DNA of 64,000 bases. Source: an uncultured Bacillales bacterium. Its GTDB lineage: Bacteria > Bacillota_I > Bacilli_A > RF39 > UBA660. The stretch's first letter is position 1, and each line of letters opens with the position of its first letter. The notes below the pieces were generated by a model, which searched no databases, was not told where the DNA came from, and saw nothing but the letters and a program-made list of their open reading frames with translations. The DNA is taken from contig CAMKGA010000002.1 in NCBI GenBank assembly GCA_946412015.1, positions 6,930 to 70,929 on the forward strand, given 5' to 3'. Below are positions 3,965 to 10,182 of this stretch, piece after piece. Made by a program: the position numbers and the translations under genes.

Positions 3965-4047
3965 AATATCACCTATAATAACATATGATATAGTTTAAAT
4001 ATTGTCACATAAAATACTTTTTTAAATATTATAAAGTGAGGTGTGTT

Positions 4048-4782
4048 ATGAAAATATTGTTTTTAGGTAGGGATAATCGTTATGATATTTTAATTGATAA
4101 TCTAAAGAATAAGTATGATATATATTGTTTAGGTTATGGATATAGAAAAGATGTAAAAATAGGAGACATTAGTAATATAAATAATTATGATATTATTGTA
4201 CTTCCTATGAGTGGATTTAAAAATAACAAAGTAGATATATTTAGACTACCTAGTAATTTTTTTGATGACTTTAAAGGAATTATTTATACAGGATTCAAAG
4301 GTAATTTAAAGGGGAATGTTATAAGCTTTTTATCAGATAATGATATTGTTTTAGAAAATACAAAAATTACAGTAGATGGTATTATAGATAAAATAAGTAA
4401 TTATAATATTAATAATGTATGTATATTAGGTTATGGTAATATAGGCTCTATTTTATATGATAAAATAAAAGATAAGTATACTGTTTATGTTGGAGTAAAT
4501 AAAAAGGTTGATATTAAACATACATTTAAAACTGATAATTATATTGATATGGAAAAAATATTTTTAAATAGTGATATTATAATTAATACAGTACCATCTC
4601 ATATTATTCCAAAGTATATATTAGAAAAAATAAATTGCTATTTTTTAGATGTTGCATCATATCCTTATGCAATTAATAAAGAAGATATTAATAATTATTC
4701 TTTTAAATATGAACTTTATTCTCAAATACCTAGTAAGTATGATCCAAAAAGAGCTGGAAAAATACTTCTTAAAAAATTTTAG
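4048..4782 (+). CDS. dpaA: Dipicolinate synthase subunit A (SpoVFA/DpaA-like)
   Basis: Rossmann motif ILGYGNIGS. It lies immediately upstream of and is coupled to dpaB. ATG 4048 follows GTGAGGTG; the track's GTG 4036 start is probably too early. It looks shorter than the SpoVFA proteins I recall. Confidence 0.75.
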   Translation: MKILFLGRDNRYDILIDNLKNKYDIYCLGYGYRKDVKIGDISNINNYDIIVLPMSGFKNNKVDIFRLPSNFFDDFKGIIYTGFKGNLKGNVISFLSDNDIVLENTKITVDGIIDKISNYNINNVCILGYGNIGSILYDKIKDKYTVYVGVNKKVDIKHTFKTDNYIDMEKIFLNSDIIINTVPSHIIPKYILEKINCYFLDVASYPYAINKEDINNYSFKYELYSQIPSKYDPKRAGKILLKKF

Positions 4783-4790
4783 GAGGAATT

Positions 4791-5372
4791 ATGAAAATAG
4801 GTTTCGCAATTACTTCATCTTTTTGTACTTTAGATAAAGTTTTAAAAGAGGTTGCTAGTTTAAAAACTTTAGGTTATGATATATATCCTATAGTATCAGA
4901 AAATATAGTAAAATATGATACCAGATTTGGCAAATCAAAAGATTTTATAGATAAATTAGAGAAAATATGTGAACATAATGTTGCATCAAATATAGTCGAG
5001 GCTGAAACATTTGGACCTAAAAATAAAATGGATGTAATGGTAGTTATGCCAGCTACGGGTGATTTTTTGGGTAAGATGGCAAATGGTATTACTGATAATC
5101 CAGTTAATTTAGCAGTAAAAGCAACTATGCGCAATAACAAGCCTATAGTTATTGCTGTATCTACTAATGATGGGCTTGGTTTAAGTGGAGAAAATATTAT
5201 GAAGCTTTATAATAATAAGAATGTATATTTTGTGCCATTTGGGCAAGATAATTATAAAGATAAACCAAATTCTTTAATTGCTCATTATGATATGTTACTG
5301 CCTACTATTGAGCATGCTTTAAATAATAGTCAAATTCAACCTGTAATAAAAGAGTATAAAAAGATAAAATAA
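4791..5372 (+). CDS. dpaB: Dipicolinate synthase subunit B (SpoVFB/DpaB, flavoprotein family)
   Basis: Collinear with my recollection of B. subtilis SpoVFB: IGFAITSSFCT, MPATGDFLGKMANGITDNPV, KATMRNNKPIVIAVSTNDGLGLSGENIMKL, VYFVPFGQDNYKDKPNSLIA. Confidence 0.9.
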   Translation: MKIGFAITSSFCTLDKVLKEVASLKTLGYDIYPIVSENIVKYDTRFGKSKDFIDKLEKICEHNVASNIVEAETFGPKNKMDVMVVMPATGDFLGKMANGITDNPVNLAVKATMRNNKPIVIAVSTNDGLGLSGENIMKLYNNKNVYFVPFGQDNYKDKPNSLIAHYDMLLPTIEHALNNSQIQPVIKEYKKIK

Positions 5373-5437
5373 TTCTCATTTTTGAGAATTTTTTTTAAGA
5401 TAAAAAAAGTGTTATAATTTTATGGGGAGGGATTATT

Positions 5438-6253
5438 ATGTATTGTACGAATTGTGGTACTGATAATAGTAAGGATTCTCTATTTTGTAAAAGATGTGGA
5501 TATAGTTTAGTTGAGAGTTATTTAAATAATACAAAAGAAACTACTACTAATAAAAAAAAGATAAATAATATTACAAAAAATTATAATAAGAAGAAAGTAG
5601 TAAATAAGAATATTGTAAAAAATAAAAATAAAAATAAAAAGAATAAGAAAAATAAAGATAATACCAAATATGCAGAAAGAGTAGAAGTAGTAAGGAAAAT
5701 GACTTTTTTTCAAAAATTTATGTTTTTTTTATTAGTGTTAGTTATTTTAGTACTAATTGGAGTTACTACTGTTATGGGATTATATATATTTTCTAAAAAA
5801 ACAGTATTAGTACCTGATGTAGTTGGGATGAATTATGATGAAGCAAGAAATGAATTAGAAAATAATAGTTTTAAAGTATCTAAAAAAGAGGTAGAAGGAG
5901 ATTTAGATATAGTACTTAGACAAAATAGAAAAAGTGGTACATATGTTATAAAAGGCAGTACAATTATTCTAACGGTAGGAATAGAAGATAAATATTTACC
6001 TAATTTATTAAATATGAGTGAAAGTGCAGCTATATCTATTTTAGAGGATTATAATATTCAATATGAAATTGAGTATGTAGAAAATGGCGAAGAAGTTGTC
6101 TTATACCAGAGTTATAAAGAAGGCACTAAAGTTAAAAATATTAAGAAAATAAAATTAAAAATTGGTAAAATTACAGATAAAAGTAGTAGTAATGAACATG
6201 ATAGTAAAGATACAGAAAATTTAAAAGAGGATAATATAGATGTTGATAATTAA
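5438..6253 (+). CDS. Zinc-ribbon / Lys-Asn-rich linker / TM / two PASTA-like domains protein
   Basis: N-terminal CTNCG...CKRCG zinc ribbon, a poly-K/N linker, the TM segment FFQKFMFFLLVLVILVLIGVTTVMGLYIF, then VPDVVGMNYDEARNELE and LPNLLNMSESAAISILE (PASTA-like starts). No kinase or transpeptidase domain. Confidence 0.7.
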   Translation: MYCTNCGTDNSKDSLFCKRCGYSLVESYLNNTKETTTNKKKINNITKNYNKKKVVNKNIVKNKNKNKKNKKNKDNTKYAERVEVVRKMTFFQKFMFFLLVLVILVLIGVTTVMGLYIFSKKTVLVPDVVGMNYDEARNELENNSFKVSKKEVEGDLDIVLRQNRKSGTYVIKGSTIILTVGIEDKYLPNLLNMSESAAISILEDYNIQYEIEYVENGEEVVLYQSYKEGTKVKNIKKIKLKIGKITDKSSSNEHDSKDTENLKEDNIDVDN

Positions 6254-6387: not shown

Positions 6388-7407
6388 ATGGCAAAAGAAG
6401 CTGACAAAACATTAGAGCAAGTAATGAAGGATATAGAAAAACAGTTTGGTAAAGGAGCTGTTATGAAACTAGGAGAACATGCCAACCAAAAAGTGGAAGT
6501 TATTTCTAGTGGATCAATAACCTTAGATACAGCTTTAGGTATAGGAGGATATCCAAAGGGGAGAATAATAGAAATATATGGACCTGAGTCAAGTGGTAAA
6601 ACTACATTTGCTCTTCATGCAATAGCAGAAGCTCAAAAAAATGGTGGTAGAGCTGCTTTTATCGATGCAGAACATGCGTTAGATCCAGTTTATGCATCAA
6701 AACTTGGAGTTAATATTAACGATTTACTTTTATCACAACCAGATAATGGAGAGCAAGCACTAGAAATATGTGAGGCATTAGTTAGAAGTGGAGCAATTAG
6801 TATTATCGTAATAGATAGTGTTGCTGCACTAGTTCCACAAGCCGAAATTGAAGGTGAGATGGGAGACAGTCATGTTGGGCTCCAGGCAAGATTAATGTCA
6901 CAAGCATTAAGAAAATTATCTGGTGTTATTAATAAAACAAATACGGTTGCTATATTTATTAATCAGTTACGTGAGAAAGTAGGGGTTATGTTTGGAAACC
7001 CTGAGGTTACTCCTGGAGGTAGAGCTTTAAAGTTTTATTCCTCTGTACGTTTAGAGATTAGACGCGGTGAACAAATTAAACTTGGAACAGATATAATTGG
7101 TAATAAAGCAAATATAAAAGTAGTAAAAAATAAAATGGCACCACCTTTTAAAAGTTGTTCTGTTGATATTATGTATGGAACAGGTATATCTAAATATGGA
7201 GAACTTGTAGATTTAGGTGCTCAAGCAAATGTAATTGAAAAAAGTGGTGCATGGTATTCTTATAATGGTGAAAAGATTGGTCAAGGAAAAGAGAATACTA
7301 AGGAGTGGTTAAAGAAAAATCCTGATGTAACTAAGAAAATTGCCCAAGAGGTTAGAAAGTTTTTTGCGAGTAGCGATACTTTAGAAATAGGAAAAACAGA
7401 AAATTAG
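6388..7407 (+). CDS. recA: Recombinase RecA
   Basis: GPESSGKTT (Walker A), [35 protein letters not shown]. Full-length collinearity with RecA. Confidence 0.98.
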
Positions 7408-7555: not shown

Positions 7556-7825
7556 ATGTGTAATGATATAAGCAAATTAAAATTTACTTTGACAAAGGAA
7601 ATGACTTATATGATGATTCAAATAAATAATTTAAATAAGGAAAAAGATTTGCTTGAATCACAACTTAAACTTTATAAAAATTCAATTCACTATCATGAAT
7701 TAAATAATTCAAAAAAGAAATTAGAAAGAAAAATAAATAGAATAAAAAAACAGTTTATAAATGAGTTCCAAAAAGAGAATAAAATTGAAATAGAAAAATA
7801 TTGGCAAATAAGAAGTATGAAATGA
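7556..7825 (+). CDS. Hypothetical small coiled-coil protein (89 aa)
   Basis: RBS GGAGGAAAA-ATG and a heptad-like K/E/L-rich sequence. It lies upstream of the STAS/sigma pair. Confidence 0.5.
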   Translation: MCNDISKLKFTLTKEMTYMMIQINNLNKEKDLLESQLKLYKNSIHYHELNNSKKKLERKINRIKKQFINEFQKENKIEIEKYWQIRSMK

Positions 7826-7899
7826 TACTTCTTATTTTTTATATCTTATTTTGTCGATTGTGTATAAGAACAAAATAATTAATCAAAATGTATTAGAAG

Positions 7900-8250
7900 G
7901 TGATAAATTTGAGAATAAATACAGAATATAGAAATGGAATACTTTTTGTAAGATTAAAGGGAAATCTTATTAGTAAAAATGTGGATTTAATGAATAAAAA
8001 GGTTACAAATCTTATATATCGAGCTGGTATTAGAAACGTAGTTTTTAATTTTGAAAAAATGAATAGAATTGATTGTAAAGGTATAAATTTGCTTTTATAT
8101 AATTATGAATTAGTAAAAAAGAATGATGGAAATATTTTTATATGTGGTGATAATGAAACGGTAAGAAAAACTTTAAGATATAATCACGTTTTTAAGTATA
8201 TTGCTGAGATAAATGATGAATTATGTGCGATGAATTTAATGAAAGGATAA
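7900..8250 (+). CDS. STAS-domain anti-sigma-factor antagonist-like protein (SpoIIAA-like, with Cys at the phospho-acceptor position)
   Basis: Aligns with B. subtilis SpoIIAA as I recall it: IRNVVFNFEKMNRIDCKGINLLL against [23 protein letters not shown]. The gene is 4 nt upstream of a SigF/G-type sigma gene. The start could be GTG 7900 or TTG 7909. Confidence 0.75.
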   Translation: MINLRINTEYRNGILFVRLKGNLISKNVDLMNKKVTNLIYRAGIRNVVFNFEKMNRIDCKGINLLLYNYELVKKNDGNIFICGDNETVRKTLRYNHVFKYIAEINDELCAMNLMKG

Positions 8251-8254
8251 TATT

Positions 8255-8905
8255 ATGAATATTGAAAGTGTTATTAATGATAATAAAAGATTAGTTTATG
8301 CAATTGCTTCGTCTTTTCCTAATTATAAAAATAAAGAAGACTTATATCAAGCAGGATATCTTGGTATTATAAAAGCATTCAATAATTTTGATCCGAGTTT
8401 AAATTGTAAGTTTTCAACTTATGCATATACATATATTTTAGGAGAAATGAAAAAAGTAATAAGGGAAGATAAAGGATATAAAGTAAGTAGAAGTATAAGT
8501 AAAATTAATTTATTGATTGAAAAAGCATATATCATTTTAAGTCAAAAACTAATGAGAAATCCATCAATACAAGAGATTGCTAGTTATTTAAATGAAGATG
8601 AATATACTATAAGTGAGGCAATTATGAGCAGCAATGTTATTATGAGTATTGATGAACCTATATTAGATGATGCAAATTGTACTTTACAAGAAGTAATAGG
8701 CAAAAGTGATAATATTGATGATTTAATTCTTTTAAAAGAAAGTATGCTTAAATTAAATGATACAGATAGAGAACTTATAAATAATAGATATATGAAAGAT
8801 TATACACAAACGGAAACATCTAATTTAATGAATATGTCACAGGTACAAGTATCGAGAAAAGAAAAAAAGATACTTAAAAAACTGAAATATGAAATGATGG
8901 TTTAA
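8255..8905 (+). CDS. Sporulation-type sigma-70 family factor (SigF/SigG-like)
   Basis: FSTYAYTYILGEMKKVIRED, YKVSRSISKI, PSIQEIASYL and YTQTETSNLMNMSQVQVSRKEKKILKKLK closely parallel SigF regions 2-4. The STAS gene lies directly upstream. Confidence 0.85.
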   Translation: MNIESVINDNKRLVYAIASSFPNYKNKEDLYQAGYLGIIKAFNNFDPSLNCKFSTYAYTYILGEMKKVIREDKGYKVSRSISKINLLIEKAYIILSQKLMRNPSIQEIASYLNEDEYTISEAIMSSNVIMSIDEPILDDANCTLQEVIGKSDNIDDLILLKESMLKLNDTDRELINNRYMKDYTQTETSNLMNMSQVQVSRKEKKILKKLKYEMMV

Positions 8906-9008: not shown

Positions 9009-9099
9009 GGAGTGGTACTCAAGAGGCTGAAGAGGCGCCCCTGCTAAGGGTGTAGACCGGGCAACTGGTGCGAGGGTTCAAATCCCTCCCACTCCGCCA
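9009..9099 (+). tRNA. tRNA-Ser (anticodon GCU), long variable arm, encoded CCA
   Basis: Acceptor GGAGTGG pairs with CCACTCC, followed by G and CCA. D-arm GTACTCAAGAGGCTGAAGAG. Anticodon loop CT-GCT-AA. Long variable arm GGTGTAGACCGGGCAACTGGTGC. T-arm GAGGG-TTCAAAT-CCCTC. The segment is GC-rich in an AT-rich background. Confidence 0.95.
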
Positions 9100-9157: not shown

Positions 9158-9201
9158 GATAAACTTAATATAAAGGTAATATATAAGATAGGAGAGTGTT
9201 T

Positions 9202-10182
9202 ATGAAAAGAAAAAATGGATTTACCTTAATAGAACTAATAGCAGTATTAGTAATTTTAGCAATTTTAGCTTTAATAGTCACACCACTTGTAATGAATATT
9301 ATAAGAAAAGCTAGAATTTCAGCGGATAAAAGAAGTATTGATGCATACGGAAGAAGTGTTGAACTTGCAATAGCTACTTATCTATTGGATAATGGAGATT
9401 TTCCAACAGATATATCACAATTATCTATTGAATACTCAGGAGATAGAGTAGAATGTGAAACAACACAGCTTAATTCAGATTCATCAGTATATCTAACTGG
9501 ATGCACAGTTGGAGGAAGAAATGTAGATTATACATATGGAACAGATAAGACTCCATCAACACCAACATATACAGCGTATAGTGTAGGAGATTCAGTTACA
9601 TATAATAATGTAGATTATTATGTAATTAAAGATTCAGGAACTAATGAATCTATTGTTACGTTATTAAAAGCAGAGCCACTTACAGTAGATGAAGTTAATC
9701 TTTATGGTGTTGGTCATATAAATAACTATAGCACTTATGTATCGCAAGGAACTGCATTTGATGTAAAAGGAGATGGCTCGATAGGTGGAATGGCATATTA
9801 TAGTAGCTCATCTTGTGCATATACAAACGAATCTATTGAAGATGGCTGCATATCAGACTATGAATCGTCAGATATTAAATACGTTGTAGATTCTTGGGCT
9901 AGTGCAAATGGACTTTCAGATGCGCGATTAGTAACATATGATGAGATATACAATAATTCTGAAGAAAAGCTTAGTTGTGCATATAGTTGTTTTAATTCAC
10001 TTGTTGTAAAATATGATTGGTTATATAGTAGTGAATATGCTTATTGGGGAATGACACCATCATCTGCTGCTAAAGTTTACTACGTTCATGGTAGCGGGAG
10101 GTTACAGGATGTACAAATTTACTGGAATGATATCGCTATTCGTCCTGTCATAACTCTAAAGAAAAGTGCATTAGAAAATTAG
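9202..10182 (+). CDS. Prepilin-type N-terminal cleavage/methylation domain protein (type IV pilin/pseudopilin-like) with a large C-terminal domain
   Basis: MKRKNG/FTLIELIAVLVILAILALIV is the class III signal (G-1, F+1, E+5). ATG 9202 follows AGGAGAG. Paralogue of 60962..61894. Confidence 0.85.
   Translation: MKRKNGFTLIELIAVLVILAILALIVTPLVMNIIRKARISADKRSIDAYGRSVELAIATYLLDNGDFPTDISQLSIEYSGDRVECETTQLNSDSSVYLTGCTVGGRNVDYTYGTDKTPSTPTYTAYSVGDSVTYNNVDYYVIKDSGTNESIVTLLKAEPLTVDEVNLYGVGHINNYSTYVSQGTAFDVKGDGSIGGMAYYSSSSCAYTNESIEDGCISDYESSDIKYVVDSWASANGLSDARLVTYDEIYNNSEEKLSCAYSCFNSLVVKYDWLYSSEYAYWGMTPSSAAKVYYVHGSGRLQDVQIYWNDIAIRPVITLKKSALEN

Follow-up and report, generated by a model that had tools for sequence, protein, structure and literature searches.

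How is sigma F controlled in a bacterium whose spoIIA operon has no place for the anti-sigma kinase SpoIIAB? The question was raised by a stretch of 64,000 nucleotides (positions 6,930 to 70,929 of contig CAMKGA010000002.1, assembly GCA_946412015.1; the whole stretch is referred to below as the window) from the draft genome of a rumen bacterium of order RF39 (1.69 Mb, 25% GC, 57 contigs, 93% complete). On the plus strand of the window, an ORF for a STAS-domain protein, starting at 7900 (GTG) or 7909 (TTG) and ending at 8250, is followed by a sigma factor ORF at 8255-8905. The two are out of frame with each other and the gap between them measures 4 nt, which leaves no space for a further gene. 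A preliminary description of this DNA had drawn attention to the missing kinase gene and to a cysteine at the position of the phosphorylated serine of SpoIIAA. The canonical sigma F partner switch is the textbook mechanism of compartment-specific gene activation. Our results make it very probable that the locus represents an order-wide form of the spoIIA operon, devoid of kinase, phosphatase and phosphorylation site, whose STAS gene is still under selection.

The STAS protein matched Pfam family PF01740 (56.2 bits) and the NCBIfam anti-sigma-factor antagonist model TIGR00377 (60.9 bits, over the cut-off). Its score against the SpoIIAA equivalog model was 61 bits, under the cut-off of 114.75. 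A profile made from 40 homologues aligned without gaps to SpoIIAA from Geobacillus (1TH8_B, E 7.6e-20) and from Bacillus subtilis (1AUZ, E 4.8e-19), SpoIIAA being the top match of this search of PDB with 74 bits. The AlphaFold2 model (pLDDT 93.6, pTM 0.86) had as its top Foldseek match 1THN_B, i.e. SpoIIAA bound to SpoIIAB (TM 0.90, root-mean-square deviation 1.5 Å). Likewise, when the canonical SpoIIAA of a class-level relative was taken as query, the window's STAS protein was the best match in its own genome (5e-19). Profiles and predicted fold thus identify this protein as a SpoIIAA orthologue.

The profile alignment paired the motif RIDCKGINL with FMDSSGLGV of SpoIIAA, so that Ser58 of SpoIIAA corresponds to Cys here (codon TGT, 8074-8076, plus strand) and Ser59 to Lys. 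In the AlphaFold2 model, this cysteine is located at the N-terminus of helix alpha-2. With Cys in place of Ser58, the protein is predicted to be refractory to phosphorylation at the canonical acceptor. The preliminary description had admitted that a proper alignment might put a Ser or Thr back at this position; the gapless alignment to SpoIIAA structures put neither there and upheld the original reading of the motif.

The second gene (8255..8905, plus strand) codes for a protein of 216 aa in which sigma regions 2, 3 and 4 are all present. Its top NCBIfam models were SigB/F/G (163.3 bits) and SigF (162.5 bits), with SigG behind (112-131 bits). All these scores remained under the equivalog cut-offs (321.45 for SigF model TIGR02885). 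Context pointed the same way, since relatives display a STAS-sigma-spoVAC/AD/AE synteny and since the genome has separate genes for SigG, SigE and SigK at other loci. From family matches, synteny and alignment of the N-terminus, the window's sigma factor is assigned as the SigF orthologue. It starts at region 2.1, without the N-terminal helix of about 20 residues of canonical SigF and SigG. The shortness remarked upon in the preliminary description is therefore real, whereas a link with the loss of the kinase had to be rejected because the sigma factors of some SpoIIAB-bearing relatives are equally short at the N-terminus.

Were the missing partners to be found elsewhere in the same genome? 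No SpoIIAB was found there, either by profile searches or by phmmer --max over all six frames with the SpoIIAB of a class-level relative as query. A weak TIGR01925 match on contig C42 was discarded as SpoIIAB, as it sits within a frame of 424 aa, the size of a histidine kinase. No SpoIIE-type protein was found in the genome either: with a relative's SpoIIE as query, phmmer --max led only to a PP2C protein encoded on contig C29, and weakly so. Matches of the same query at C13:37783-39023 corresponded to hydrophobic low-complexity sequence in short frames and were not retained as a SpoIIE remnant. The rest of the endospore programme is represented by Spo0A, SpoIIR, SpoIIGA/sigma E, sigma G, sigma K and DpaA/DpaB. 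The genome holds exactly four sporulation sigma factors, one per kind: the window's, which is the sole sigF locus, SigG at C1:10056-10883 (369 bits versus a cut-off of 372), SigE together with SpoIIGA on C44, and SigK on C13. The kinase-less arrangement, as first described, was confirmed.

The comparison was extended to 37 genomes of the family, to seven class-level relatives with a STAS match, and to an even sample of 301 genomes from the order, representing 127 genera. All seven class-level relatives displayed the order STAS-SpoIIAB-SigF, with a SpoIIAB of 138-149 aa and an MDSSG or IDSSG motif in the STAS protein, and SpoVAC came next in six of them. The SpoIIE proteins of SpoIIAB-bearing relatives ranged from 698 to 781 aa. 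Within the family, an orthologous STAS gene was present in most genomes and sigF lay directly 3' of it at every STAS-bearing locus inspected except one, the two genes often overlapping or being spaced by 4 nt. The exception is G008 (C28:18200-20800, L059), where metK, coding for an S-adenosylmethionine (SAM) synthetase of 388 aa, separates what is the sole split pair. In several members of the family, and in a GenBank metagenome-assembled genome (MAG) labelled 'uncultured Bacilli', spoVAC-AD-AE and recA were found 3' of sigF; in G024, a dacF-like carboxypeptidase gene directly precedes sigF. A single-protein scan for related loci returned three distant loci only.

A small HATPase_c_2 gene was found beside the STAS gene in none of the 37 family genomes. 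The SpoIIE domain PF07228 was missing in 35 of them, matches being confined to the window's genome (G000) and to G004, a sister species. Among the 301 genomes of the order, not one reached the SpoIIAB cut-off. Matches to the SpoIIAB model at E≤1e-10 went up to 51 bits, all under the cut-off, and they occurred in kinase-sized frames of 346-455 aa, except for one frame of 117 aa at a contig end. Spo0A and SpoIIR exceeded their cut-offs in 36 and 35 of the 37 family genomes, respectively. Considering these absences across family and order against the intact operons of class-level relatives, the lineage has jointly lost SpoIIAB, SpoIIE and the acceptor serine, and it has kept the rest of the sporulation cascade, SpoVA included. 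The kinase-less arrangement is an order-wide trait and not a local oddity.

These data also bear on the possibility, put forward in the preliminary description as what would overturn it, that a canonical spoIIAA-spoIIAB-sigF operon exists elsewhere and that the window's pair is a decaying duplicate. With 57 contigs and a completeness of 93%, such an operon might belong to the 7% of the genome that was not assembled. We hold this to be improbable in the extreme. No such operon was found, the same kinase-less arrangement recurred in every related genome having the locus, SpoIIAB was encountered in 0 of 301 genomes of the order, and the four sporulation sigma factors, one per kind, leave the window's pair as the sole sigF locus, which is moreover under purifying selection.

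Selection was estimated from NG86 values of the ratio of non-synonymous to synonymous substitutions (dN/dS), calculated against two close relatives with 87% and 80% amino-acid identity. The STAS gene gave 0.106 and 0.148, sigF 0.116 and 0.152, and recA 0.03. A STAS gene constrained on par with sigF is no pseudogene. In addition, 18 columns were invariant among 40 STAS homologues, down to 43% identity. Comparison of signature positions between the clade and nine canonical sequences showed that the fold core is retained (R15, L16, G18, N47, D55, G58, Y66, G74 and C79). Canonical E19, F53, S56, G60 and the S92-G93-L94 (SGL) motif are absent from the clade, and other positions have switched (M54I, S57K, I62L, G64Y and R65N).

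The preliminary description had asked whether the DCKG motif was conserved among orthologues; it was not, as residues in the acceptor column vary freely. Three independent runs from sheep or bovine gut yielded contigs identical over positions 7800-8400, TGT codon included, so that the cysteine is reproduced in independent metagenome assemblies. As it occupies the regulatory site where helix alpha-2 begins, it could be taken for the sensor of a thiol or redox switch over sigma F. Yet Phe (TTT/TTC), a single-base difference from TGT, is found in the relatives with 87% and 80% identity, and Cys, beyond this species and its 98%-identical twin, turned up in no more than a few scattered homologues. 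Among 63 clade sequences, Tyr occurred 22 times, Leu 12, Ile 7, Phe 6, Met 5 and Cys 4. A broader count was made from the best 150 representatives at 50% identity among 281 STAS clusters matching at E≤1e-10. In these, Leu, Ile, Ser, Glu, Asn, Lys, Met, Tyr and others were recorded; Ser or Thr was found in only 20, and Cys was counted in none. The second cysteine, C79 in a CG motif, is common to canonical SpoIIAA. Redox control, one of the options raised initially, therefore appears most improbable, and the acceptor cysteine reads as an incidental residue, one of many tolerated at an unconstrained position.

A kinase acting from elsewhere in the genome had been another of the initial options. 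Apart from the window's STAS gene, the genome has a single one, located on contig C29, which also carries the only PP2C gene and the only small HATPase_c_2 gene. The PP2C protein (537 aa, membrane) resembles SiaA/RsbU and scored 46.8 bits with TIGR02865 (SpoIIE), the cut-off being 490.8. The HATPase_c_2 protein (134 aa, 68.6 bits with PF13581) is RsbW-like (38 bits versus 26 bits for SpoIIAB), and the STAS protein (96 aa) displays Ser in the acceptor column. These partner-switching genes belong to a cluster outside the window (C29:1179-7854; L001, L006 and L020), together with a non-ribosomal peptide synthetase (NRPS) of 1002 aa consisting of a single adenylation-thiolation-condensation (A-T-C) module and with a MATE exporter. 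No sigma gene is attached to the cluster, so the module may have the NRPS or the exporter as its output. Clusters of this type were limited to G000 and sister species G004 (2 of the 37 family genomes), PP2C and kinase being fused in the latter.

As these are the sole PP2C and HATPase_c_2 genes of the genome and are accompanied by a Ser-bearing second STAS, the RsbW-like protein could be thought to serve in trans as the anti-sigma F, with the adjoining PP2C in place of SpoIIE. We find this very unlikely. The kinase and phosphatase exist, but they come with their own Ser-bearing STAS protein, in a cluster of their own with NRPS and exporter, and in two genomes of the family only, which bars them as a general solution. 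The kinase is closer to RsbW than to SpoIIAB and the PP2C protein is remote from SpoIIE (47 bits versus a cut-off of 491), and the window's STAS protein offers no residue to phosphorylate. The C29 module is an accessory partner-switching unit, not a set of missing spoIIA parts.

Concerning the expression of the pair, several features were read from the DNA upstream of it. A hairpin at 7810..7842 (plus strand), consisting of AAGAAGTAT / ATACTTCTT and a T-run, was kept in L063 and L066 and is probably the terminator of an upstream ORF of 89 aa, in which case STAS and sigma genes would form a separate transcription unit. The consensus terminator scan reported no terminators in this 25% GC DNA and overlooked this hairpin as well, owing to its AT-rich stem. 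The consensus promoter scan was equally uninformative at such a GC content (18 sites versus 15.6 expected). TGTCGAT (7852..7858, plus strand), which precedes the STAS start by about 50 nt, matches six of the seven positions of consensus TGTCGAA and constitutes a candidate Spo0A box, as in spoIIA promoters. The TTTTGTCGATT block holding this heptamer was kept at the loci of the two closest relatives, and exact 0A-type heptamers occurred only five times within the 64-kb window.

Translation of the STAS gene very probably starts at TTG 7909, yielding a product of 113 aa (7909..8250, plus strand) rather than the 116 aa expected from GTG 7900. This assignment follows from the putative ribosome-binding site GAAGGTG (7896..7902, plus strand), 6 nt before the TTG, and from the fact that every database homologue or gene call has 113 aa, with homologues beginning at the corresponding codon. 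Downstream, the operon is limited by a tRNA-Ser (GCT) gene detected with ARAGORN (9009..9099, plus strand); spoVA does not follow sigF in the window's genus.

Upstream of the STAS gene are found dpaA, dpaB, a gene for a zinc-ribbon/PASTA protein, recA and the 89-aa ORF, and in a close relative (L066) the block dpaA-dpaB-PASTA-recA-orf89-STAS-sigF was kept whole. The first part of this block (4036-6253) includes a weak DpaA-like gene (64.6 bits versus a cut-off of 261) and a strong DpaB, followed by the zinc-ribbon/PASTA gene, which codes for a stand-alone membrane protein. The 89-aa ORF that separates recA from the STAS gene (7556-7825) codes for a coiled-coil protein; it matched no family, was confined to the genus and is under strong purifying selection (dN/dS 0.06). 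As it was found only in the window's genus, it was rejected as a substitute anti-sigma factor.

Directly upstream of STAS-sigF, eight other genera of the family have a gene for a C-terminally membrane-anchored protein of roughly 400 aa (L026:211-1422, with homologues in L028, L033, L034, L035, L037, L038 and L039), which could be a lineage-specific partner of the operon. For the window's own genome it was likewise discarded as a substitute anti-sigma factor, no homologue being found there. In the only sister-family genome sampled (G037, C28:9933-10674), spo0A is broken by an in-frame TAG, which could reflect a pseudogene, recoding or a sequencing error. Finally, two type IV pilin-like genes were encountered, one in the window (9196-10182) and one on C29 (G000:C29:103-1056). 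Over some 50 N-terminal residues (FTLIELIAVLVILAILALIVTPLVMNIIRKARISADKRSIDAYGRS) they are almost identical, and they diverge thereafter; they are paralogous pilins with variable C-terminal domains.

How, then, might the remaining pair work? The explanation we prefer overall, with about even confidence, is that spoIIAA-spoIIAB-sigF shrank to an altered spoIIAA followed by sigF in a genome-reduced, uncultured lineage of rumen and gut Bacilli. The STAS protein would thereby have left the phosphorylation-driven partner switch and would most likely have come to modulate sigma F stoichiometrically and independently of phosphorylation, as a holding or inhibitory factor. It would either bind sigma F directly or work via a partner other than a HATPase-type kinase. 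The operon would probably be switched on by Spo0A, and forespore specificity would then come from a source other than SpoIIE-dependent dephosphorylation. On its own, the proposal that the STAS protein modulates sigma F directly, without phosphorylation, is tentative and we consider it possible. A more ambitious version, in which the whole order makes endospores without SpoIIAB and SpoIIE and the SpoIIAA descendant serves as direct anti-sigma or holding factor in a minimal two-protein module, strikes us as rather doubtful; there, release in the forespore might result from, e.g., differential stability or the asymmetry of gene positions.

Several observations weigh against this explanation. In three genera of the family, sigF occurred without any STAS gene (L054 in G024, L056 in G028 and L058 in G021), and two further genera have degenerate STAS genes. 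Helix alpha-2 was highly variable across the best 150 representatives at 50% identity, which is more in keeping with an interface that is plastic or under weak constraint than with a new, fixed one. Completeness of the genome is 93%, the sporulation cascade could have been diverted to other ends, and, to our knowledge, spore formation has been shown for no member of the lineage.

Some of the same observations would suit a STAS protein that is a mere leftover without a role towards sigma F, or one that has switched to an unrelated partner. In that case, sigma F would be left to Spo0A-dependent transcription only, or to an anti-sigma factor unrelated to SpoIIAB. The genera with an absent or degenerate STAS gene, the wide variation of acceptor column and helix alpha-2 in the clade, and the metK gene separating the pair in G008 are all compatible with such a fate. 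A leftover would not be expected to display a dN/dS of 0.11-0.15, equal to that of sigF, nor 18 columns without any variation in a set of 40 homologues reaching down to 43% identity, nor would the pair be expected to stay adjacent at every STAS-bearing family locus inspected bar G008. We therefore judge this alternative unlikely, if still worth serious attention. Loss or degeneration of the STAS gene in some genera indicates that it is useful and, in some lineages, dispensable. For the STAS protein as a modulator of sigma F, such dispensability fits better than for an obligatory sigma chaperone.

Compared with the canonical spoIIA operon and SpoIIE (B. subtilis, Geobacillus structures 1TH8/1THN/1AUZ, and Clostridia), the system described here has in common a SpoIIAA orthologue with the same predicted fold (TM 0.90), a SigF-type sigma factor, the spoVA/dacF/recA synteny at relatives' loci, a probable Spo0A box, and the cascade made of SpoIIR, SpoIIGA/sigma E, sigma G and sigma K. 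It differs by the absence of SpoIIAB, of SpoIIE and of a phosphorylatable serine, by a sigma factor without the N-terminal helix, and by the loss or replacement of E19, F53, S56, S57, G60, G64, R65 and the SGL motif. Non-canonical single-domain STAS proteins, with an output that may bypass a classical anti-sigma factor, have been described, e.g. SypA of V. fischeri and RbaV of Rhodobacter (PMC8256260). Like the window's protein they consist of a STAS domain only, but they keep the conserved serine together with a cognate kinase and phosphatase (PMC8256260), all three of which are gone here. A precedent for rewired STAS-sigma architectures is sigma-SsdA of Actinoplanes missouriensis, in which a STAS domain is fused to the sigma factor and still binds the HATPase-type anti-sigma domain SipA (PMC10733313). 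The STAS domain is physically tied to the sigma factor in sigma-SsdA; here, in contrast, the genes are separate and a HATPase-type anti-sigma factor of this kind is lacking.

For order RF39, loss of spoIIAB and spoIIE had already been listed at the gene-list level (Microb Genom 2024, PMC10868615), and these losses match those found here. That study is a survey of presence or absence of KEGG orthologues, in which SpoIIAA, the loss of the acceptor serine, adjacency to sigF and selection are unmentioned. What is new beyond it is a selected, non-phosphorylatable STAS protein encoded next to sigF.

The lineage has thus dropped kinase, phosphatase and phosphorylation site, and it retains sigma F, SpoIIR, sigma E, sigma G and sigma K along with a STAS protein under selection. 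With the parts of the switch lost, sigma F must be controlled in some other way. Either a simpler, undescribed mechanism can give forespore-specific activation of sigma F, or the cascade has been redirected to a different use. Both readings bear on the minimal set of sporulation genes and on the prediction of sporulation from metagenome-assembled genomes, as well as on the evolution of partner-switching modules.

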